Shown here in pieces: positions 21,650 to 62,182 of a stretch of DNA of 64,000 nucleotides. The stretch is from IMG/VR virus record IMGVR_UViG_3300043399_000446, positions 22,133 to 86,132 of that record. The stretch is one strand, 5' to 3'. Origin of the DNA: a virus. Within the stretch, counting starts at the first letter, position 1; every line of letters starts with the position of its first letter. The position numbers and the translations under genes are program-made. A model generated the notes under the pieces. It did not search any database. It saw only the letters and a program-made list of their open reading frames with translations, and was not told the DNA's origin.

Positions 21650-23149
21650 TTAAATTGGTAAGGCATAAGTTATTAGAACTCTACCCGAACCTCCTGATGC
21701 CCCTGCAGCAGTGTAATATAATTCTACATTAATGGGGGTTCCCACTGGACCCACTGATGAAGGAACGTCGTATCTACCTACTGTTGTCAAGTCGCTATCA
21801 CCGGCACCAGCAAATTGAGTAGGAATACCTTGTGGACCCACAGTGATAGTTGCTCCAGTGCCACCGCTGAATGCTGAATCAACGATAATGCTTACTGTGT
21901 CAACAATAGCATTTGCAGGTAAAGTAAATGCACTTATTGTAGCATTTGAACTGACAACGAAAGGTGTGCTTACAACCGTCATCATACCTACAGGCTGTGG
22001 TGCACTCCAACTTAAGTTTCCATTTCCGTCAGTTGATAAGAATTCACCTGCATTTCCGCCTGAAATCTTGACATTAGAAACAGGACCTAGGTTAGCAACA
22101 CCATCTACTGTTAGACCTGTTAGAGTTCCAACAGAAGTAATGTTTGTCTGTGCATTTGTTAATATAGTACCACTTAAATTACCAATGAATGTGTCAGCGC
22201 GTACATTACCTAACGTTGTCCAGTTAACAACTTCATTGTTGATACTTACTTGACTACCAAATGCAAATTCACTATTACTTGTGTCCCAGCCCATAAATGC
22301 TGTTGCACCTGCATTACCAGCAGTGTTCCAATAGTTTAATGCAGTACCAACGTCATAATTAGTGTTAGAAGTTAGTGGACCACCATTAGAACTTTGTAAT
22401 TGTATGATTGGATCTTTTACTGACAATGTATCAACATTAATGTATGTTAAATTACCATTGACAGTTAAATTACCACCAACTAAAACGTTACCTTGAACAT
22501 CTAAATTTGTTAATGTACCAACGCTTGTAATATTAGGTTGTGCATTTGACGTAACAGTCTCAGCTATTAAAGCGTTTGCTACCTGTCCTGTTATATTAGC
22601 AGCCGTAATACTTGTTAGTAACGCACCATTTCCGCTTAAGTTTGTAGCGAATAATGTATTAGTATCAGTGTTAAATGTGAAGTTAGCACTAGCACCAAAT
22701 GAACCGCTACTGTTGAACTGAACTTGTGTATTATCACCACCTGCCTGTTGGAAATCAACAGGAGCGCCATTTGCGTAATAATAGTTATCAGTTAGAATAC
22801 CACCTGTACTTATATTACCTGTAACGTTAGCATTTCCTGATACACTTAGATTTGCCAGTGTACCAAGTGATGTGATATTGGGTTGTGAGCTTGAAGTAAC
22901 TGTATCAGCAACTAATGCATTTGCTACTTGACCAACAATGTTAGCTGCTACAATGTTAGTTAAGCCTGCTGCATTACCTACGAAAATACCTTCAGATGCA
23001 GTAATATTACCTGCAGTTAGGCTTACAAAAGAGGTATTTGCACCATTTTTTACTTCAAGATTACCTGAAGCATTTTGTAGCAAAGGACCCGTAAATCCTA
23101 ATTGGAAATTACCTCCTTGGGTACCTTTAATTTTAATCCATGTACTCAT
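21650..23149 (-). CDS. fibre-like repeat protein
   Basis: Q(P/T)NITS repeats, VQFN-x-x-G-x-FG, TDGNGNLSW motifs. Confidence 0.65.
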   Translation of the reverse strand: MSTWIKIKGTQGGNFQLGFTGPLLQNASGNLEVKNGANTSFVSLTAGNITASEGIFVGNAAGLTNIVAANIVGQVANALVADTVTSSSQPNITSLGTLANLSVSGNANVTGNISTGGILTDNYYYANGAPVDFQQAGGDNTQVQFNSSGSFGASANFTFNTDTNTLFATNLSGNGALLTSITAANITGQVANALIAETVTSNAQPNITSVGTLTNLDVQGNVLVGGNLTVNGNLTYINVDTLSVKDPIIQLQSSNGGPLTSNTNYDVGTALNYWNTAGNAGATAFMGWDTSNSEFAFGSQVSINNEVVNWTTLGNVRADTFIGNLSGTILTNAQTNITSVGTLTGLTVDGVANLGPVSNVKISGGNAGEFLSTDGNGNLSWSAPQPVGMMTVVSTPFVVSSNATISAFTLPANAIVDTVSIIVDSAFSGGTGATITVGPQGIPTQFAGAGDSDLTTVGRYDVPSSVGPVGTPINVELYYTAAGASGGSGRVLITYALPI

Positions 23150-31672: not shown

Positions 31673-31696
31673 AGATAAGGGGTTTCCCCCTTATCT
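31673..31696 (-). terminator. hairpin/terminator after tail sheath
   Basis: AGATAAGGGG-TTTC-CCCCTTATCT. Confidence 0.6.
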
Positions 31697-34600
31697 TAGG
31701 CTGATAATTCTCCTGTGTTTAGAACACGAACTGGAATGTAGATGAATTCAGCAGCTTTCACTGGCTCAATCGCAACGTCAACCCATAGTTCATTTCTATC
31801 TATTCTAGCAGGTGTGTTATTACTTTCATCACAAACTACTAGATAGTCGTAAATACCACGTTTTGCAACTAAATCAATCATAAGTGTTTCGATAACACCT
31901 GCGATTTCATTACGTGTCAATGCATCATTAGGTTCAAACACAAATGGTCTAGAAGCTAGTGTTAGCTGACGACGGATATATGCTACCAATCTTGCTACAT
32001 TAGTTCTGTCTAGTGCGCTTTGTGAATTGAAACTTGTCTTATTGCCATAGTTCAATAATCCTACACCCGTAAAGAATACTAATGGGTTGATGAAATTGGT
32101 ATACAATACATCACGAATACCTATACGTGTCTTAATTGTTACAAACTCACCTGTTGTTCTATTCAAGTAACCTATGTTAGTTGCGTTATCAATGATACCA
32201 CGGCGTGTACCTGCTGCTGCTAACCATGGATAAGAAATAGTATCATTACGCAAGAATGTACGTAGCATCATATGTGATGCTGGTACAGCAACTAAATTAC
32301 CATTCAAGTCTGAAGTGATACCACTGGGATAAAATAGACCCATGTAAGTATTACGTGATACTAGACCTTCTTCGCCTGTTGAAGTTGCACCTACAGCATT
32401 ATTTGCCCATGCTTGAATTGCGGTAGCGTCATCAGCTAAACCCATTGGTGTGTCACCAATAATATAGGCTGTTTCACCTCTATCAGCATTTAATACTATC
32501 ATGTTAGGTTGTAACTCAGGATAGTTGGGAGTAGCAATTAGATTGAAAAAGTTATCTTCATCACGTATATCTGTGTTAGTATCAATTGCTTGACGCATTG
32601 ATTGAACAACCATATTACGCTGTGCTTTACGGCCCATAAATGGCGCACCATTACTTTGTAAACCACTTACTGATACCCAAGCATCTTTTTGTGCAGGTAA
32701 CGATTGATTTGGAAAGTTGCTTCCACTGAAATAGTTTGCTCTAAACTGTTTTACGTTATATCCCGAGCGTCTTGTGTTGAATAAAAGCATACCTGTTGGA
32801 TACAATGAAGCATCAGGAGCATCTAAGTCAAGATAATTGCTTGTTAATAGTGAAGCAATTGTGGGAACTGGATCATCGACTGCACTTGTTGTACTATTAG
32901 TTGCCCAACGAGCATCAGCAAATAAAACACCATTTGAACTTACTTGATCTGTATTATTGATTAGCGTCCACTGATCTTCGCCATCCACACTTTCATAACG
33001 GCGTATTATGGGATAATTTTCTAAATCACTCGTATCTATCCATAAATCACCATAAACTAGTGACGTTCCATCGCTCTGTGCTGTAGGTGCTGTTGCACTA
33101 ATGATAGGACCATTTGGATCAGTAGCGTTTGTTCCACTGGGTGTTGGAAAACCTGAAGAATCATAATTTTGATTCTTATATCCCCTCCAGTTACCATTGT
33201 AGTTTACCATGATATCTACTTGGTCGACTACTGAATAGAACCAATTTGTACCGTTCGCTGGTGCTTGTGCAGGCTCGCCTTCATTAGCAGTATATGTAAA
33301 TTCAACCCAGTTACTGATCTGCGTAGTATAATTGCTTGCTGCTGTTCCTGAAATATATGTGACGCGGCTAACTGCTCCACCTGTTACAGCAGCCACTTCA
33401 ATGACAAGATTATTTGCTGGCGCAGTGCCTCCTAAACTATTACCCGCGATAGTAATTTGATCGCCTACAGCGTAACCTGAACCGCTTGCTGAAGGTATTG
33501 GAGCAACAGTATAAGATTCATATGATTTTGTGATATTAAATATTGCACCTGTACCTGCTCCAGTTGTTGATGTTTGCGAAACTGAAAACATTTTCACATC
33601 TGAAGGACCTATTTTACAACCTGACGTTGTTCCCACAACGAATCCTGCTGTTACTAATAATCCATTAGAAACGCCAGTTAGGGTATTGTAGTCATTAAGA
33701 ACAATTTCACCACCTTGTGTATGAACTAGCTGTATTGAACCGCTAGTGGTAACTGAGGCTACTGTGTTAGGTATATTTGCAGCAGACCAACGAGTTACAA
33801 AATCTGTAGCAGTATCATTATTATTTATAGTAACAGTGTAATAAGATGAAAGTGATGAACTACCTGGTGTACTTACTGCCACACGTAATGTATATGGTCC
33901 TGATGAGAATACTGGATTATCGACAGAACCTGTTACAACTGTTGGACCAGTAGCTATACGCTCCCATAAATAAACTGGTGTCAAACTTGAGTCATTAAAG
34001 TTGTATTGCGCGTAAATAGAACCTGCAGGAATCGCTTTTCCACCAGTCGCGTCTAAGCTTTCTGTTGCTGCCCAGTCACTTGTAGCTAATGTTACAGCTT
34101 TTGTTGACCATGATGCTATGCCCGCGTCATAGCGAGCAATTACAGGAGCTAAACCTCCTCCTGCTGCACCTACTTTAACCCATACTGAACCTGTAGGTCT
34201 TGGATTAGTTTGACTGCTTGTCCATAATGGCATTTGCGCCGCCGTACCATAATAAAAGCCTGGTTGTAAATAATTACCCGTATTTATTCCTAAATCTGTT
34301 AGTACTGTGCTACCTAATACTTGAGTTATTTCAATATAATTAGCATTACTTTGGCCTTTTTGCCTTGAATAGATAGCTAGTTTTCCATCTACCACTTCAG
34401 CAAATAAGTCATACCAACCTAGTTCATTAATAACATTTTGTACACCGTGAACTGTATTATCAGGTGCTAGAGGTACTATAATATTTGCACTTATTGTGCC
34501 ACCTAGACTTAATACAAAAGAATCACCAGCTGTTAGTGTAGGTTCACTTTGCGTTCCCTGGATTGTTGGCCAATCTGCTTTCCACGCATCTGAACCTAAT

Positions 34601-35238
34601 GGTACCCATACATTGTTGGTTGATTTATAAAAATATTGTGCTGCATCGCTTGGTGCTGCTGTAATTTGTATAGCATTTACAGCGTATTCACCTATGTTAC
34701 CAATGCTTGCTAATGGTACTCCACCTGACAATTGATCTGAATCTGTAATAACGATAGGGAATTGTTGTGTGAATTTACCAGTTGTAGCGTTGAATTCGAA
34801 AATTCCCCATGTACTATCTGTGGTATCTAACCAGTAAGCACCATTATCTGGTGCACCTGTTGGACGACCTGTTTGACCTACTAGGGCTGCTAAGTCAATG
34901 TCTGAACGAAGTACGTAACAACGATTTGTTGCGCCTAATACTGAGTAGGCTGCTAATAAACCATATTCGTTTAGTTCATAACCTTGAATAGGTGTACCAT
35001 TTGTTGTTGTATAAAAGAATGGTGTACCATAAAGATTTACTAAATCACGCTGACTTGTTACTAAGAATAATTTATTAGAGTTAGCTAATGTCGTAGCTTG
35101 TGCGACACCTGTACCCGAGGCGTCTGCCTTGTTCTGTGCTGTAGCTACAACTACAAGAGGTACTGAATTTGTTGGGGCAGGAAGATATTGACTTTGGTCA
35201 ATAATCGTTACTTCTACGCCGGGTGATGTTAAAGCCAT
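31696..35238 (-). CDS. contractile tail sheath protein (gp18-like)
   Basis: SPGVEVTIID N-terminus; PWLAAAG, FVFEPND, VCDESNN, AEFIYIP C-terminus. Confidence 0.93.
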   Translation of the reverse strand: MALTSPGVEVTIIDQSQYLPAPTNSVPLVVVATAQNKADASGTGVAQATTLANSNKLFLVTSQRDLVNLYGTPFFYTTTNGTPIQGYELNEYGLLAAYSVLGATNRCYVLRSDIDLAALVGQTGRPTGAPDNGAYWLDTTDSTWGIFEFNATTGKFTQQFPIVITDSDQLSGGVPLASIGNIGEYAVNAIQITAAPSDAAQYFYKSTNNVWVPLGSDAWKADWPTIQGTQSEPTLTAGDSFVLSLGGTISANIIVPLAPDNTVHGVQNVINELGWYDLFAEVVDGKLAIYSRQKGQSNANYIEITQVLGSTVLTDLGINTGNYLQPGFYYGTAAQMPLWTSSQTNPRPTGSVWVKVGAAGGGLAPVIARYDAGIASWSTKAVTLATSDWAATESLDATGGKAIPAGSIYAQYNFNDSSLTPVYLWERIATGPTVVTGSVDNPVFSSGPYTLRVAVSTPGSSSLSSYYTVTINNNDTATDFVTRWSAANIPNTVASVTTSGSIQLVHTQGGEIVLNDYNTLTGVSNGLLVTAGFVVGTTSGCKIGPSDVKMFSVSQTSTTGAGTGAIFNITKSYESYTVAPIPSASGSGYAVGDQITIAGNSLGGTAPANNLVIEVAAVTGGAVSRVTYISGTAASNYTTQISNWVEFTYTANEGEPAQAPANGTNWFYSVVDQVDIMVNYNGNWRGYKNQNYDSSGFPTPSGTNATDPNGPIISATAPTAQSDGTSLVYGDLWIDTSDLENYPIIRRYESVDGEDQWTLINNTDQVSSNGVLFADARWATNSTTSAVDDPVPTIASLLTSNYLDLDAPDASLYPTGMLLFNTRRSGYNVKQFRANYFSGSNFPNQSLPAQKDAWVSVSGLQSNGAPFMGRKAQRNMVVQSMRQAIDTNTDIRDEDNFFNLIATPNYPELQPNMIVLNADRGETAYIIGDTPMGLADDATAIQAWANNAVGATSTGEEGLVSRNTYMGLFYPSGITSDLNGNLVAVPASHMMLRTFLRNDTISYPWLAAAGTRRGIIDNATNIGYLNRTTGEFVTIKTRIGIRDVLYTNFINPLVFFTGVGLLNYGNKTSFNSQSALDRTNVARLVAYIRRQLTLASRPFVFEPNDALTRNEIAGVIETLMIDLVAKRGIYDYLVVCDESNNTPARIDRNELWVDVAIEPVKAAEFIYIPVRVLNTGELSA

Positions 35239-36390: not shown

Positions 36391-37176
36391 TTATCCCTGT
36401 ACCCAAGTCAACGGCTGTGAATAGTCAACATAACGCTTGAGTTCATCAATCAAACGTTCTTGGTCAGCTTTGCTTTCAGCTTTCATAGCTGAACCATTCA
36501 ATGTTGTGCCACCACCTGGACCCACAATACTACCATATTTTTCACGGGCCTCACCTATGATACCTTTTAGAACTGCTAGTGTATAGTCACCTATCCAAAC
36601 ACCAGCACCTGGATCTTGTAGTAGCACTTCTTCAGGTCTTTGGACATCTGCCCAAATAAGGACTCTCTCGCCTGTTCCTTTAGGGTCACGGACAATACGT
36701 AATACTTTGGTAACAGGGTCAAATGTATAGATAACGTAACCACCAAACATACGTGCAGCCAGTTCTACATAACCTGCGTAAAAGTCATAAGTTGCCATAC
36801 CACCAGCATAGTTATAATTTAGCAGGTAAGTATTAAGGATAGCACTACTAAAAGGATCAAATGAAGATGATGCTGGTCCTGTTTCCATACCCACGGTTCT
36901 GCGGAAGATTGATCTTACGTTTATGAATTCCTGTGGCAATGTATAAGTGTCAACATTCTTGACCACAGTCATTAATGTATATGATTCCGCTGTGGCATTT
37001 TGTGCCCGTTGACGGTAAATTTTAATGGCGTAATTATAAGCAGCTTCAAAATGCTGGGGATCTAACTCCAGGTCTACAATATCACCACCTAATCTTAGGC
37101 GCAGATTTTCAAACATTGCGTTTTTTAATTCGTCTAACGTGTATCCATTAGGTGTATTAAGTATATTAGCTGCCAT
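36391..37176 (-). CDS. neck protein (gp13-like)
   Basis: LRLGG...ELD, GEAREKY...GPGGGTTLNG. Confidence 0.8.
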   Translation of the reverse strand: MAANILNTPNGYTLDELKNAMFENLRLRLGGDIVDLELDPQHFEAAYNYAIKIYRQRAQNATAESYTLMTVVKNVDTYTLPQEFINVRSIFRRTVGMETGPASSSFDPFSSAILNTYLLNYNYAGGMATYDFYAGYVELAARMFGGYVIYTFDPVTKVLRIVRDPKGTGERVLIWADVQRPEEVLLQDPGAGVWIGDYTLAVLKGIIGEAREKYGSIVGPGGGTTLNGSAMKAESKADQERLIDELKRYVDYSQPLTWVQG

Positions 37177-37243
37177 AATTTTAATCCATTTATAAATTTA
37201 TTTATCTGGATTTTCTGGTTCTCTAATCATTCCTAGGCAAAAG

Positions 37244-37266
37244 GCGAGTAGATATGCTCTACTCGC
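37244..37266 (-). terminator. intrinsic terminator closing the candidate ncRNA
   Basis: GCGAGTAGA-5 nt-TCTACTCGC followed by CTTTT on the minus strand. Confidence 0.65.
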
Positions 37267-37269
37267 AAA

Positions 37270-37612
37270 AATAAAAACCATTCCTTAGGCTCTATTACAG
37301 AGGCGACGATGAATTTAAAGATTAAGGTGGAGGATTGTCTATGTCTCACCTACCCCTCAAGGGGACTTTACCATATTCGCTGCAAAGTCAAAACATTATT
37401 CATCGGGTAGTTTTGACCAGCCTGGGCCCTCTATCGCTATTACCATGACCCAGCAACATCAACCATTAAGATACAGGAAACGTTTCCGTCAAGGGACGGA
37501 CGTTTAGGCATCATAGGGTAGTCCTGTAAATTCGGCGTTGGTCTCACCTGCCACCGTCACCCGTGAATAGGGAACGGATTATAGACACACTCCAGGGCGT
37601 GTGTTTGCCCAT
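37270..37612 (-). ncRNA. candidate large structured ncRNA (unassigned family)
   Basis: ORF-free, GC-enriched, multiple helices and pseudoknots, G-U pairs favour the minus strand. Confidence 0.6.
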
Positions 37613-37629
37613 TAACCAATAATTATTAC

Positions 37630-38499
37630 TTACTTGCTATTTTCGTAAGACCATTTCCAAGTATAACCTTCTTCTAGACCTAAACTGTCACACAATTCAT
37701 CAGTAAAGGTACCATCAATTCGTAATGTATATCTAAATCCTGGTTCAGGATCTACACCATGATAGTCGCGGTTATTGAAAAAATAACTTCTAGCTCCTGA
37801 AGGGAGATAATGTTTTTCTTTATTTTTTTCATCCCATATAAAGCTAGGTCTCCACCCACCATCAAAGAACAAGTTTATATTGTGATCTTTATGTTCTGCT
37901 ACGATACTATCTCTGTGTATAGTTACCCCTGCGTTGGGATAAGTAGTGAAGAACATTATTCTTCCTATTTCTTTGAAAGGTAGTGTTTTTATATATTCTA
38001 GTAGTTTAGGGAAATGCGATGCTGCAGGAGTCCAATTATCATTATTTTGAGTTTTATTCCTGAAGTCACCGTGCTTTAGATAAAGAGCAAAGAACCAAGG
38101 TATAGCTGACCCTAAAGCAAAGTACGCATACTTATAAAATGCCTGTATTTCTTGGCCTTTAGGGGCTTTACTTATCAGATCCAGTAAAGCGTGATGATGA
38201 ATCCCTGAGGGATCTAAAGTAGATAGAATTTTAGTCCATGACCCGTGATTATCATATCGCAATTCTTCTTCAGGGGGTATATCACCATATATCATTCCCA
38301 TCTTGTATTCAGTAGCTAATGCTAATCCTTGGCAACATTCTATATGTAATTCAGTATCCATACTATGGTCGATAAATTGATCCATAGATATTATCAGTTG
38401 TTTTTTGATACCTACACCTTTAGCTCCATATTCTTGGTATTCAAAATGGGGTATTGAAATGTTTCCTATACTGAATATTTTATGTGCTTGGTTGTTCAT
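37630..38499 (-). CDS. 2OG-Fe(II) oxygenase / Asp-Asn beta-hydroxylase-like protein
   Basis: IHRD (HxD), FNNRDYHGV distal His, RYTLRIDG. Confidence 0.6.
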   Translation of the reverse strand: MNNQAHKIFSIGNISIPHFEYQEYGAKGVGIKKQLIISMDQFIDHSMDTELHIECCQGLALATEYKMGMIYGDIPPEEELRYDNHGSWTKILSTLDPSGIHHHALLDLISKAPKGQEIQAFYKYAYFALGSAIPWFFALYLKHGDFRNKTQNNDNWTPAASHFPKLLEYIKTLPFKEIGRIMFFTTYPNAGVTIHRDSIVAEHKDHNINLFFDGGWRPSFIWDEKNKEKHYLPSGARSYFFNNRDYHGVDPEPGFRYTLRIDGTFTDELCDSLGLEEGYTWKWSYENSK

Positions 38500-38924
38500 A
38501 AATCTCTTTCTTTTCTATTTTCGCTATAGAAGGGATCAAACTCTCCACCAGGATATCGTGCTTTTAGTTTTTCTACATTCTCAGCAACAACATCATTGGG
38601 ATCGTAACCTAGTGCGCGGCAAGCATTTATCCAATACCAAATGATATCGCCTAATTCACGTTTCATGTGATAGCGATTTTCTTCAGTATAGGGCTTACCT
38701 TGAAACGCCATCTTTTTGACGATTTCACTAAACTCCCCGCCTTCACTTGCCAACCCAATACTTGCGGTAAGTAGTAAGGGCATGTTTAGTTGTAAACTAT
38801 GAACAGCAGCCTGCCTTTCCAACTTATGAATAGAATCTATAAAAGACTCTACATAATTTGATTGGTTGCTAGTTACGCCAGCTACAAACTCTTTGTATTT
38901 GTTTAAGTCGATTTTTTTATCCAT
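38496..38924 (-). CDS. mazG: MazG-like NTP pyrophosphohydrolase
   Basis: GLASEGGEFSEIVKK...ELGDIIWY, NVEKLKARYP. Confidence 0.88.
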   Translation of the reverse strand: MDKKIDLNKYKEFVAGVTSNQSNYVESFIDSIHKLERQAAVHSLQLNMPLLLTASIGLASEGGEFSEIVKKMAFQGKPYTEENRYHMKRELGDIIWYWINACRALGYDPNDVVAENVEKLKARYPGGEFDPFYSENRKERDL

Positions 38925-38932
38925 ATTTTTCC

Positions 38933-40165
38933 TTAGAATGCTTTCAGCAGAATCATATCAGCGTTAAACCTGCCGCTAGGGTTACCAGCTACCGCACGAA
39001 TGTCTTTGAAATATTTCCGTGCCGCAGGCTTGCTACCCATGATCTCCTTGATTTGTTCAGCAGGACGACGCAGCGTTTTCATTTCGCTTTTCAGCGTATC
39101 AAACCCCAGAAGCGTATTGCCCTTGACCGAGAAAGTCTTGGCAAGATCATCCGCAACATAGTGGTGCAGCTTGCGTTTCGCCGTATCATAGACCCACGCC
39201 TCACTCGCCCCCAGCAACATCTTGGGATGAATGCTGACAAGATTCAGCTTAGTCTCAGCGTCCTTGAATTCCTTCAGGAACTTGAGTTTAGCTACAATCT
39301 TCTCGGGCGGCACAGCCTTACGCTTGCGCGGCGCTTTCGTAGCCTTTTTGTTGCTGACATAGCTACCCACACTAGCCAGCATAGCTTCGATAAACTTGAT
39401 CGTGTTTTTGACCTGAGTTTTCGTAAGATGCGAGTACGCTTGAACCAGTTGCGGGTCCCTACCCTCAAGCACCTCATTGTACTCTGCTAGCTTGCGCTTC
39501 CAAGCATCAGTAACAATTGAAGTATGCTGAGGCATAACATTGTATTTTGTCAGGAACCCAACAGCATCAGCAGGCGTATTAGCCTTCGATCCACCAAGAT
39601 TGAAGTCATCCATCACACCTTCAAGCTCACCCGCAGCTTGACGCGCCTTTTCACGCATCACTTCCTGAATATTAGGACGTGCTGCGGCGTCTTCCTTGAC
39701 CTTCTTCTTGCCACCAATCAGTGACTCGACCCTGACAATGGGAGCAAGGAGACGGGCAACTTCAGCATCCAGTTGCTTTTGTTCCACCTCAGTAAGGATC
39801 AGACCACGTAGAGTGAGGCGAGCCAGCCAGGCATACGTGGGAATAGCGAATTCGCTGTCATCTACCTTAGCCATGATTTTGGCTTCAGTAGTCTTTCCGT
39901 TATGGAGAAGGAACTGAATCATCAGGTCTTTGGCATCTTTACGACCATAGAACCTGTTGTACCAGTGTAGCGACGTAGCAAGGACGCTTTTGCGAACATC
40001 CTCATTGGGCTGAACCGTAAACTCAGGTTCATACCCAATACGAGCCACTTCAGGATCTTTAGGATTGAGAGCCTTGACGGTAGCAGAGTTGTCGATCAGC
40101 ATCGACTTTTTAGTCACCCTACGTGCGACAGGCTTAGCAGGCTTTACAGCGGCTTTACGAGGCAT
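38933..40165 (-). CDS. conserved early hypothetical protein
   Basis: 410 aa, visibly GC-richer than the flanks, consensus sigma70 promoter. Confidence 0.7.
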   Translation of the reverse strand: MPRKAAVKPAKPVARRVTKKSMLIDNSATVKALNPKDPEVARIGYEPEFTVQPNEDVRKSVLATSLHWYNRFYGRKDAKDLMIQFLLHNGKTTEAKIMAKVDDSEFAIPTYAWLARLTLRGLILTEVEQKQLDAEVARLLAPIVRVESLIGGKKKVKEDAAARPNIQEVMREKARQAAGELEGVMDDFNLGGSKANTPADAVGFLTKYNVMPQHTSIVTDAWKRKLAEYNEVLEGRDPQLVQAYSHLTKTQVKNTIKFIEAMLASVGSYVSNKKATKAPRKRKAVPPEKIVAKLKFLKEFKDAETKLNLVSIHPKMLLGASEAWVYDTAKRKLHHYVADDLAKTFSVKGNTLLGFDTLKSEMKTLRRPAEQIKEIMGSKPAARKYFKDIRAVAGNPSGRFNADMILLKAF

Positions 40166-45010: not shown

Positions 45011-45961
45011 TTATTCCTTGTTGATACTTACGATAGGATAAGTTACACCAGCGGCTGCATTAGCATCTTCTGCACTATTGAATGTTGCATAAGCAGGATT
45101 TGCATTTTGTAGTAAGGGCGCACTGTTACCAAAAATTTCAAGATTCACATCGCTCAAGCTTTGTACAAATGCTGTAGCAGCATTAGCATAAGTTGCGATA
45201 ATGTTCATTGTATTTGGTGTTAGTGAAGCATTAGCTACGTTAGCTGTTTGACACTGAGCTACTAGGCCACTTGTTGCACCTTGAACTAGATACTTTTGTT
45301 TGCCTTTTTGACGAACAATAAATCCTGGCTCGTTTGTGGCAAAAACGAATGCGGCATCAGTAGCATCAACTTCTGCGTTTGCAGCTAGTTCTAGTTCAGT
45401 ATCACTTGTAATTGAATCTACGTAGCCCACTAATGTACCGTCAGCTAATGTTAGAACTGAACCCACAGCTAGTTCTGTATCAAATGCTGTATCTACACCA
45501 GTAACTGTTGTGCTTGTAGCGTCTGTAGTAATTGTTCCGGTACCTGTTTGACCAATAGCTACACGGCACAATACTTGATTACCATAAATTGCTGTATTAC
45601 CACCGACTACACCATAAGTGTTTGAAATACCAGCTGGATTGTTGAAACCTGAATCAACTACACCAACTGATGCTGCTACACTTTGACCTGTTGTTGCTGA
45701 AAGATTTACAGGTGTATAAGTAGGATTTGCATTTAGAGGTGTCGCTGATACTGTGAAAGTAGAAGCACCGGTAACTTTTAGAATCCAGTATGTTGTACCA
45801 GCAACCAAGCCACCTACGTTACTTGCTGCAACGAATGGCATACCTGCAATAATACCTAGGCTAGCTAATGTCTGTGATACTGTAACTTCTTCTGTACTTG
45901 CGTTTGTTGCTGTGATTGTAAGCACGGCTTGTGCTTTTGCGATTTTTAGAGGACGTCCCAT
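45011..45961 (-). CDS. virion structural protein (MGRPLK family)
   Basis: A/T/G-rich, IVRQKG motif, strong SD, late promoter. Confidence 0.6.
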   Translation of the reverse strand: MGRPLKIAKAQAVLTITATNASTEEVTVSQTLASLGIIAGMPFVAASNVGGLVAGTTYWILKVTGASTFTVSATPLNANPTYTPVNLSATTGQSVAASVGVVDSGFNNPAGISNTYGVVGGNTAIYGNQVLCRVAIGQTGTGTITTDATSTTVTGVDTAFDTELAVGSVLTLADGTLVGYVDSITSDTELELAANAEVDATDAAFVFATNEPGFIVRQKGKQKYLVQGATSGLVAQCQTANVANASLTPNTMNIIATYANAATAFVQSLSDVNLEIFGNSAPLLQNANPAYATFNSAEDANAAAGVTYPIVSINKE

Positions 45962-45976
45962 TTGTTTCTCCTTTTG

Positions 45977-46040
45977 TGACGGGCGTTCTAGGCCCTACGC
46001 GGTGGGGACCGCATAAACTCTCCCCATGAGAGTATAGTCA
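45977..46040 (-). ncRNA. cis-regulatory structured leader (4-way junction with kissing loops)
   Basis: P1 TGAC/GTCA encloses three hairpins; TGGG(GA) and TCCCCA loops are complementary. Confidence 0.65.
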
Positions 46041-61006: not shown

Positions 61007-61206
61007 TCGTGGTCACGGCCCCATGTTAGCATGAATAGAGTATAATCTTTTTCTTCGGAAAATTCAATAAGTAATTTATCATCCTGCACTTTTCCGGTAA
61101 AATTCACCTTATGTTTATCTGCCCAAATATACAATCTAATCTCTATTGTGCTTTTAACAAGATCCCTCAGTGCTTTATCTTCGGAGGGTAAATAAAATTC
61201 AATCAT
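60982..61206 (-). CDS. F-x-L-R-W family small protein
   Basis: FSEEKDYTLFMLTW. Confidence 0.6.
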   Translation of the reverse strand: MIEFYLPSEDKALRDLVKSTIEIRLYIWADKHKVNFTGKVQDDKLLIEFSEEKDYTLFMLTWGRDHEWKMTKII

Positions 61207-61436
61207 TCCCACCTCAATTTGGCTAATAATGCCATATCTTTATTCCATATTCTTATGATGTATAGTGTAGGTTCAGCAAAGATACTATTATTGTAATCTG
61301 TTCCTAAAGGTAATAATTCCCAGCCATCACCGTAGGCTGACCAAAAATGGTTATTTATTTTGAACTTACCCACATTATTTTCAAGCCAAGAAATTATTTC
61401 CTGCCTACCACCCCTAGCCTTTACTTCATATGGCAT
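61203..61436 (-). CDS. F-x-L-R-W family small protein
   Basis: WLENNVG...DMALLAKLRWE. Confidence 0.6.
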   Translation of the reverse strand: MPYEVKARGGRQEIISWLENNVGKFKINNHFWSAYGDGWELLPLGTDYNNSIFAEPTLYIIRIWNKDMALLAKLRWE

Positions 61437-61437
61437 A

Positions 61438-61692
61438 TTACCACCTTAAGGCACACAATAAATAATCTCGTTCGTATCTGAATTTTATACAGAATGAGTT
61501 GTCGTCAAATGCCCACCTACAATGACGTTCGCAATTTGGAATGCTATCATAGATCCAATCTAAAATATCACCGTACCAATTTACAAATTTACTATGTGTG
61601 TTTATTTCAGGTAGAGGTATAGTATGTTGATACCATCCAGGTTTGACATCACACCAATCTTTTTGTGTTTCGTACCACTCTAACTTTTTCAT
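61438..61692 (-). CDS. F-x-L-R-W family small protein
   Basis: FRYERDYLLCALRW. Confidence 0.6.
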   Translation of the reverse strand: MKKLEWYETQKDWCDVKPGWYQHTIPLPEINTHSKFVNWYGDILDWIYDSIPNCERHCRWAFDDNSFCIKFRYERDYLLCALRW

Positions 61693-61961
61693 AACCAACG
61701 CATAGTGAACAATAAAGCATCCTGTTCGTTTTTAAAATACATCATTGTATAATTAAAATCTTTTTCTAATATCCATAAAATATCGTTATCTGTACAACTT
61801 TCTTCAACAGAACATATATCGCCGGGACCGTAATAAGTATAAGATACTATGTTACCCTTACCTAAATAAGTTTCACAAAAAGAAATAATATCTTCCAGTT
61901 GATTATAAAAATTTTTATATAAACTGATTTTCTCCCAACCTTGAGGTATATCTATTATCAT
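61689..61961 (-). CDS. F-x-L-R-W family small protein
   Basis: FCETYLG...FKNEQDALLFTMRWL. Confidence 0.6.
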   Translation of the reverse strand: MIIDIPQGWEKISLYKNFYNQLEDIISFCETYLGKGNIVSYTYYGPGDICSVEESCTDNDILWILEKDFNYTMMYFKNEQDALLFTMRWL

Positions 61962-62182
61962 AACCAACGCATACAAAAGAAAAGGGCGTCTTTTTCAAAT
62001 TTAAAATAGAATGTATCAGAGTATCTATGGACCCAACCATATCTCCAAATACATTTTTTATTTCTACCACCTTCACCAAAGTTGTCTCTACACCACTGAA
62101 TGACTTCGTGTAAATCATCGTGAGTATATGGTTTTATTGATAGCTGAACTCTAAATTCATGCTTGCTCTTACGTTTAATCAT
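61958..62182 (-). CDS. F-x-L-R-W family small protein
   Basis: WCRDNFG...FKFEKDALFFCMRWL. Confidence 0.6.
   Translation of the reverse strand: MIKRKSKHEFRVQLSIKPYTHDDLHEVIQWCRDNFGEGGRNKKCIWRYGWVHRYSDTFYFKFEKDALFFCMRWL

Follow-up and report, generated by a model that had tools for sequence, protein, structure and literature searches.

A conserved multi-pseudoknotted RNA encoded upstream of the head-tail adaptor gene in uncultured freshwater giant phages

A gap of 453 nucleotides (nt) between two genes of an uncultured virus (positions 37177-37629) raises the question of what is encoded there, if not a protein. The gap belongs to a stretch of 64,000 nt, hereafter the window, that corresponds to positions 22,133 to 86,132 of the 86-kb IMG/VR virus record IMGVR_UViG_3300043399_000446, the completeness of which is estimated at 25%. 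A preliminary description of this DNA singled out the region as the longest one free of open reading frames (ORFs) and as enriched in GC. Indeed, nowhere else in the window is there so long a run lacking an ORF of at least 60 amino acids (aa); all ORFs overlapping the gap have 38 aa or fewer, and the GC content is 0.464 at 37240-37612 vs 0.368 in the whole window. The same description took the gap for a large, multi-pseudoknotted phage non-coding RNA. Comparison of about 100 homologous loci identified in IMG/VR bears this out: covariation is strong, and no Rfam 15 family matches. We show that selection acts on an RNA fold consisting of two domains and three pseudoknots, and propose that positions 37229-37622 of the minus strand are probably a gene in its own right, the product of which would be a stable non-coding RNA of ~390 nt that acts in trans and represents a family outside Rfam.

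Selection on an RNA fold with two domains and three pseudoknots

Homologues were collected by several routes. The adaptor protein encoded next to the gap has 448 confirmed relatives in IMG/VR; among the loci of the best 80, which were kept, 9 showed a DNA match to the gap, and one more locus was reached via the 289-aa ORF on its other side. A 17-mer of the most conserved block retrieved 82 viral stretches, with BLAST matches in 75, 5 of them very short, and a second, gapped pattern from a different conserved block yielded additional viral loci. The matches gave 59 unique full-length segments; once the 7 loci lacking a BLAST hit and the 5 with tiny hits had been dropped, 48 homologues remained, which together with the window form alignment A2, a plain MAFFT alignment of 49 rows. 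A profile hidden Markov model (nhmmer) produced 103 matches among 325 loci, with the match of the whole RNA spanning model positions 2-390; the weak, partial matches are distant homologues, namely, those in loci L316, L319 and L312/L291/L302, together with L214, which comes from a bacterial metagenome-assembled genome (MAG). Covariance model R1, which represents the 5' domain with 159 positions, matched 64 places in 86 sources, scoring 135 bits for the window, 95 bits for L214 and 40-65 bits for the distant viral copies.

As delimited in alignments A2, A3 and A5, the gene extends from a 5' leader to a conserved 3' block, GCCUAGGAAU. Folded as a single sequence, the minus strand reaches -123.9 kcal/mol (z = -2.86), which none of 100 shuffles matched. 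RNAalifold, applied to the 49 distinct sequences of A2, predicted 47 pairs, 24 of which display compensatory changes. For the 5' domain (41 pairs in the 61 rows of alignment A4), 88.9% of the cells are paired vs 75.4% in shuffles, and the covariation measure is 0.395 vs 0.146, a value reached by none of 500 shuffles; sliding the partners by one to three columns reduced it to at most 0.085. The 3' domain (42 pairs in the 49 rows of A2) behaves likewise, with 95.0% vs 82.1% of the cells paired, covariation of 0.386 vs 0.156 (0 of 500 shuffles) and slid controls of at most 0.081, although the number of further pair types is equal to that in shuffles (58 vs 58.0). Among the non-Watson-Crick cells, G-U combinations exceed A-C combinations (169 vs 74), and at one position U-G is the commonest pair (35 of 49 rows), and both observations speak for a minus-strand RNA and against a DNA element. 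The lengths of sense-strand ORFs scatter between 18 and 83 aa among the homologues, a sign of non-coding sequence.

The 5' domain combines two pseudoknots, one between leader and loop and one of the H type, with two hairpins and a junction that carries invariant letters (coordinates in this section refer to the minus strand). In a pairing absent from the preliminary description, the leader UUGGUU (37614-37619) pairs with the loop of hairpin d (37538-37543), with 89% of the cells paired and both sides changed in all six pairs; the variants, at least eight in number, include UUGGUC/GACCAA, UUGACU/GGUCAA, UUGAUC/GAUCAA, UUAGUC/GACUAA, UUAGGC/GCCUAA, UCAAGC/GCUUGA, CUGAAU/GUUCAG and UAGAAC/GUUCUA. 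Hairpin d itself (37534-37548; GGUG/CGCC around the loop GACCAA) is 95.5% paired, with changes on both sides in 4/4 pairs. In the H-type pseudoknot (37585-37610), stem 1 (GGGC/GCCC) is paired in 95% of the cells and changed on both sides in three of its four pairs. Stem 2 (ACACAC/GUGUGU) stands in the wrong register in the model alignment, where 43% of its cells are paired; a script applied to each sequence separately found the knot, with at least 3 base pairs (bp) in stem 1 and at least 4 bp in stem 2, in 41 of 48 distinct segments, and several of the seven failing segments (L085/L100 type) also form it when inspected by eye. Stem 2 is represented by 20 distinct strands, with a mean length of 4.15 vs 3.15 when the partners are swapped. 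Hairpin c (37554-37577; CCGUU...GACGG) is 99% paired, with both sides changed in 5/5 pairs. Finally, helix e (37472-37528; UACAGGA/UCCUGUA), in which 100% of the cells are paired and five of seven pairs changed on both sides, closes a junction that holds GGACUACC...GAUGC..UAAACG along with the long hairpin f; the inner stem of the latter is 96% paired and covaries in all five pairs. The junction letters under helix e are invariant, including in the distant homologues. The repeat AGGTGAGAC noted previously is present as well, forming the 5' strand and the start of the loop of two different hairpins.

In the 3' domain, a hairpin the loop of which is conserved is followed by a stem-loop that pairs, through its loop, with a downstream segment and by a three-way junction bearing an invariant 17-nt loop; a terminal hairpin then closes the RNA. 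In hairpin h (37422-37453; CUGGGUC/GGCCCAG), 99.7% of the cells are paired and six of seven pairs changed on both sides, with the loop, AUGGUAAUAGCGAUAGAG, kept in the distant homologues. Helix i (GCUG/CAGC; 37379-37421), which is 100% paired with two of four pairs covarying, surrounds hairpin j (GUCAAAAC/GUUUUGAC), the 8-bp hairpin proposed earlier (GTCAAAAC/GTTTTGAC), which is 81.6% paired in the MAFFT alignment and changed on both sides in seven of its eight pairs. The loop of hairpin j, CGAUGAAU (37398-37405), is the 5' strand of a long-range pseudoknot, the 3' strand of which is AUUCAUCG (37307-37314). All cells of this pseudoknot are paired, with both sides changed in two of seven pairs; in distant copies, the pairing takes the forms CACAAUG/CAUUGUG, CCGUGG/CCACGG and UUCACU/AGUGAA.

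The three-way junction (37316-37370) comprises helix l (UAAAG/CUUUA; 93.8% paired, 4/5 pairs covarying), a further addition to the preliminary description; hairpin m (CCCC/GGGG); and hairpin n (GGUG/CACC; 95.5% paired, 4/5 pairs covarying). Hairpin m, proposed earlier, is kept in the homologues but is nearly invariant. The loop of hairpin n, AGACAUAGACAAUCCUC (37330-37346), where the 17-mer used for fetching loci lies, is invariant in the main lineage, and its core, GA.AUAG.CA..CC, is kept in every distant copy. Two long-range helices of the preliminary description were not recovered: the 5' partner GGTGG(C)AGG assigned to CCTCCACC is replaced by GGUAGAAG in the homologues, and CACC pairs locally with GGUG in hairpin n; for TGTCTAT/ATAGACA, the 5' partner is not conserved in the alignment. 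An optional small hairpin o (37290-37302; CUCU-GUAAU-AGAG), as read in the alignment, carries GNRA- or UUCG-type loops in some homologues and is missing from many. The terminal 9-bp hairpin (37244-37266) has an invariant 3' strand, AUAUCUACUCGCC, followed in the window by CUUUUGCC; it is terminator-like by scan, folds at -14.6 kcal/mol (z = -5.14) and retains the outer GGC/GCC pairs in 98% of the cells. Thus, of the terminator thought to close the region, the hairpin and, in the window, the U tail are real, but the U run is missing from most homologues.

Overall, nearly all of the helices suggested in the preliminary description, and the three pseudoknots, are backed by compensatory changes in homologues. 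Constant across deep divergence are GGACUACC, GAUGC, UAAAYG, the loop of hairpin h and GA.AUAG.CA..CC.

Genomic setting and patchy distribution

On the minus strand, the gap is preceded by a MazG-like gene (38496-38924) and a 289-aa ORF (37630-38499) that separates the former from the RNA, and is followed by the genes for the head-tail adaptor Ad2, dNMP kinase and tail sheath. The 289-aa ORF belongs to no known family, has only three relatives in IMG/VR and shows no linkage to the RNA; searches of Pfam and PHROG returned no match that would justify the label 'oxygenase' attached to it earlier. The name 'gp13' given to the downstream gene proved apt in that its 261-aa product (36391-37176) matches the head-tail adaptor Ad2 family (phrog_211, E = 3.5e-22). 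This adaptor is at most 38-40% identical to the best isolates, the giant myoviruses Atu_ph07 of Agrobacterium, K64-1/Muenster of Klebsiella and PA5oct of Pseudomonas, and on this basis the record is assigned to an uncultured giant phage. With the RNA of the window or a homologue as the query, no DNA match was detected at E <= 1 among 50,697 records of isolated phages.

Among the 87 main-lineage loci that include the 3' end of the RNA, 81 have the adaptor gene no more than 400 nt downstream on the same strand, and three of the six exceptions have little sequence left. The upstream neighbour, in contrast, varies, being a 72-aa ORF, MazG-sized ORFs, a 195-aa ORF or terminator-like hairpins located just before the leader. 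In adaptor loci without the RNA, mostly ~60 nt separate the upstream gene from the adaptor gene, and the upstream stop codon is joined directly to a CCUGAUAAAUA box, part of a small hairpin that precedes the start codon. Where the RNA is present, it lies between that stop codon and the box. The corresponding element of the window, a CAGAUAAAUA box in a small hairpin just before the start of the adaptor gene (37199-37208), is outside the RNA. The small pre-start hairpin (37177-37215) occurs in nearly all relatives, with a late-promoter-like 5' arm (CCUGAUAAAUA) and a Shine-Dalgarno (SD)-like 3' arm (AGGA/AGGU); it could function as a promoter box or as a translational operator, or combine the two roles.

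In uncultured freshwater giant myoviruses, the RNA gene is accessory, being often gained, lost or exchanged, as indicated by its presence in only 9 of the 80 best adaptor loci, its single copy in a complete 364-kb genome and its distribution over the adaptor phylogeny. A FastTree tree was computed for 96 adaptor proteins, those of 48 RNA-bearing and 48 RNA-less loci; identical combinations of protein and state and loci with less than 450 nt upstream were omitted. On this tree, RNA presence changes at least 13 times; with shuffled labels, the mean is 32.4 and the minimum 25. In this tree, which carries no support values, the RNA-bearing rows were ascertained via RNA motifs.

Further phage lineages have the RNA as well, at different loci. 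A 277-kb genome with terminal repeats (G404) encodes two diverged copies, L336 (C1:251009-251175) and L337 (C1:30236-30403), that are ~70% identical over 226 nt; one is located one ORF upstream of the adaptor gene, and the other ~220 kb away among small unknown ORFs. Both long-range pairings of these two copies differ completely in sequence, a divergence that would fit, without proving, a role of these contacts in determining specificity. The L312/L291/L302 copies are flanked by a RusA-like gene on one side and a convergent baseplate-hub gene on the other, and those of L312 and L302 end, according to folding, in a GC-clamped hairpin followed by U6-7. Just upstream of the leader in these three loci (737-800 in L312), AGGTCT boxes are repeated (…TAAGGTCT…CAGGTCT…), which may represent a phage-specific promoter or operator. 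The copy in another locus, L154 (1284-1738, minus strand), appears to be a chimera: its 5' domain, which has an expanded hairpin d, is of the L087 type, and its 3' domain is of the L095 type. This suggests recombination within the RNA gene.

The bacterial copy (L214 6298-6459, on the ~22.3-kb contig G001:C3) scores 95 bits with the 5'-domain model, and its 3' half gave no match to the 3' domain. The MAG concerned (1.9 Mb, labelled Pseudomonadota) has two porin genes that flank an island of ~7 kb, in which this copy is accompanied by two integrase genes, an AAA ATPase and a DUF6641 gene. BLAST of this 5' domain against 400 other genomes of the same order returned only two 22-nt hits at chance level. 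A pattern scan of bacterial contigs retrieved at least 120 stretches, and L214 was the only one matched by nhmmer among the matches listed; the covariance model, applied to 100 listed bacterial stretches, gave no match at E <= 1, and the other 19 were covered by nhmmer only. A Betaproteobacteria toxic small RNA (RF02278, 56.7 bits) at L214 2452-2512, in the vicinity of this copy, is a possible lead to the host group.

Comparison with known RNA families

No Rfam 15 model matched the RNA, whether at gathering thresholds or at permissive E-values; the searches covered the window, the region 37100-37750 at E <= 10, and 14 homologous and 6 distant loci at E <= 5. The statement of the preliminary description that hallmarks of tRNA, tmRNA (transfer-messenger RNA), RNase P and group I/II introns could not be matched agrees with the results of both ARAGORN and the Rfam models. 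A description in print was not found in the literature searched. The passages covered of PMC10690425, in which the candidates average 67 nt, mention no jumbo phage, mazG or neck element, and its supplementary tables may hold fragments of the RNA; the passages covered of two 2026 preprints do not mention it either. The family is, therefore, outside Rfam 15 and, within the literature searched, without a printed description.

The closest likeness is to GOLLD and ROOL, which is one of kind only and not of membership: these RNAs, too, are large, multi-pseudoknotted, phage-borne, non-coding and patchy among related genomes. At ~390 nt, the RNA described here is smaller, and the models of GOLLD (RF01998) and ROOL (RF03087) matched in none of the Rfam searches listed above. 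GOLLD and ROOL are often located near tRNAs, unlike the present RNA: ARAGORN detected neither a tRNA nor a tmRNA gene in the 64-kb window around it. GOLLD and ROOL reportedly form homo-oligomeric assemblies made of RNA only. Another phage-encoded structured RNA with covarying loop-loop pairings is the phi29 prohead RNA (pRNA; RF00044), the model of which was not matched in the window. In the main lineage, the RNA gene likewise adjoins the gene of a head-tail connector, but the RNA is more than twice the size of the pRNA, and its distant copies are not near such virion genes. Furthermore, because it is absent from many close relatives, the RNA, in contrast to phi29 pRNA, cannot be essential for packaging. 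As for the GOLLD/ROOL type, contacts between copies are reported from cryo-electron microscopy (10.1101/2024.12.08.627333). By analogy, the covarying 'pseudoknots' of the present RNA could in principle be contacts between copies.

With tmRNA and RNase P RNA, both of which are sometimes encoded by phages, the RNA shares the size class of ~350-400 nt and the presence of several pseudoknots. ARAGORN found no tmRNA gene in the window or in locus L328, no Rfam tmRNA model matched, and neither an acceptor/T-arm pairing of the RNA ends nor a tag frame was seen; the RNase P RNA models were not matched in the window, at E <= 10 in 37100-37750 or in the 20 homologous loci. The group I/II intron models (Intron_gpI) were not matched in the window or in these 20 loci. 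The sequence upstream of the RNA differs between loci, often ending in a stop codon or a terminator-like hairpin. The observed order of helices presumably does not give the P3/P7 arrangement of group I introns, and a possible resemblance of AUAGACAAUCC to group I core elements gained no support from any test made. No model of HEARO/IscB omega-RNA or of other guide RNAs was matched; the neighbouring genes vary, with none being a nuclease by PHROG or Pfam, and both ends of the RNA are conserved, so that a variable guide segment is not seen. As to retrons or DRTs (defence-associated reverse transcriptases), RVT_1 (PF00078) was detected in none of three phage records searched, including the complete 364-kb RNA-bearing genome.

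Candidate functions and rival explanations

The distant copies at other loci, the genome with two copies and the copy in a bacterial island all weigh in favour of an RNA gene that stands alone and can be exchanged, rather than a leader belonging to the adaptor gene, as do the terminator-like hairpins that immediately precede the leader in several main-lineage loci and the position of the RNA upstream of the CAGAUAAAUA box, which precedes the adaptor gene also in RNA-less relatives. Under the proposed reading, the transcript would arise by read-through or through its own transcription and would then be released, with the 5' pseudoknots and the 3' hairpin protecting or stabilizing its ends. The conserved unpaired letters of the junction and loops might form the binding or active surface of a compact scaffold for a protein, of phage or host origin, or for assembly of the RNA with its own copies in the manner of GOLLD and ROOL. 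The RNA would act in trans, not as the leader of a neighbouring gene.

Several observations weigh against this proposal. In 81 of the 87 main-lineage loci, the adaptor gene comes directly after the RNA on the same strand, which leaves room for a role in cis in this lineage. No promoter was identified, the U run after the terminal hairpin is mostly missing, and the hairpins of the distant copies (plus strand) were not called by a strict terminator scan. A partner protein was not found, and the L214 island and the fetched phage loci have no protein in common. Furthermore, alignment A4, with its 61 distinct rows of the 5' domain, was fitted to the model structure and hence favours that structure, and most of the loci were fetched via the conserved 17-mer, so that the invariance of the loop is in part a matter of ascertainment. 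Scaffolding or assembly as the mechanism is an inference.

We consider it unlikely that the RNA acts in cis within the late or virion operon, as a long structured inter-cistronic leader or as an element for processing or stability that would control the adaptor gene just downstream at the level of transcription read-through, decay of the mRNA or translation. The adjacency to this gene, the terminator-like terminal hairpin in the window, and the hairpin with the CAGAUAAAUA box and SD-like arm before the start codon are all points in favour of such a role. Close relatives, however, have the adaptor gene without the RNA, with 71 of the 80 best adaptor loci giving no match; the distant homologues are not beside this gene, one kind facing a convergent gene instead; and the second copy in the two-copy genome lies among unrelated small ORFs. 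Moreover, the leaders known to us need far less than ~390 nt and three pseudoknots. The invariance of GGACUACC, GAUGC, UAAAYG, GA.AUAG.CA..CC and the hairpin-h loop across deep divergence could alternatively reflect the active site of a new ribozyme that processes itself or another RNA, and a multi-pseudoknotted architecture is also seen in large ribozymes. Such an activity appears quite unlikely given that the Rfam searches yielded no match to any ribozyme family and that the copies display neither conserved flanking exons nor a cleavage-site signature, with the upstream sequences differing between loci.

The clean presence or absence of the RNA, with the upstream stop codon and the CAGAUAAAUA box as exact boundaries, would also be expected of the RNA of a mobile or selfish element (degenerate intron-like, homing or moving cargo), for which this position would be the preferred insertion site. 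The changes of state on the adaptor tree, the copy in an integrase-bearing bacterial island and the seemingly chimeric L154 point in the same direction. We consider this explanation very unlikely: neither target-site duplications, terminal repeats, endonuclease, transposase nor reverse transcriptase are found beside the phage copies, RVT_1 and the intron models went unmatched as described above, and recombination among related phages explains the patchiness, too. The least credible explanation is that the conserved element is not an RNA but a DNA element, such as an origin or packaging site, or encodes a 35-aa peptide on the opposite strand behind a perfect GGAGG-7 nt-ATG signal. The complement of the invariant loop does read GGAGGATTGTCTATG, and a frame of 35 codons comes after it in the window; however, this frame closes after three codons in 22 of the 49 homologues, the ATG is lost in distant copies, G-U is tolerated on the minus strand only, and compensatory changes maintain the pairing in three crossing pseudoknots. 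The antisense small ORF was thus rejected as a candidate. So was the idea of an antisense target: in the window and the 86-kb record, the complement of the invariant loop, which resembles an SD sequence plus AUG, occurs only as the opposite strand of the gene itself, and it is not conserved in the distant copies.

A more far-reaching version of the stand-alone reading, namely, that the RNA represents a new functional class, is possible but doubtful. The RNA might be self-assembling, with both long-range pairings being intermolecular as in ROOL and GOLLD, or might be a new ribozyme, in either case as an exchangeable accessory module. If so, it would be a module carried by giant phages and mobile elements, for example, to counter host defence. 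The patchy distribution marks an accessory module, the class of genes in which functions in phage-host conflict concentrate, and its carriers are abundant uncultured freshwater giant phages. Complex tertiary folds are known for few large RNAs of bacteria or phages, and each of those known to have been solved revealed new biology, as in the cases of tmRNA, RNase P RNA, omega-RNAs and the GOLLD/ROOL cages. The comparative signal here is unusually clean, with three covarying pseudoknots, ~100 sequences and deep variants, which makes the RNA ready for structural and biochemical work, and the alignments and covariance model enable annotation of the family in viromes.

The only match to Rfam in the window is a freshwater-2 RNA (RF02980) on the minus strand at 45959-46033 (63.3 bits vs a gathering score of 49.9); this motif, the function of which is unknown, is thereby located in a giant-phage genome. 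Another region poor in ORFs, 61007-62178, comprises 1172 nt without an ORF of at least 100 aa (431 nt without one of at least 80 aa), with a GC content of 0.33-0.35. The minus-strand gene at 38933-40165 encodes a 410-aa protein of unknown function (phrog_11903) and has a GC content of 0.47-0.52 compared to the window mean of 0.368. The tail sheath gene (31696-35238, minus strand) encodes 1180 aa, about twice the usual length, with the PHROG sheath match covering residues 471-1176 only.

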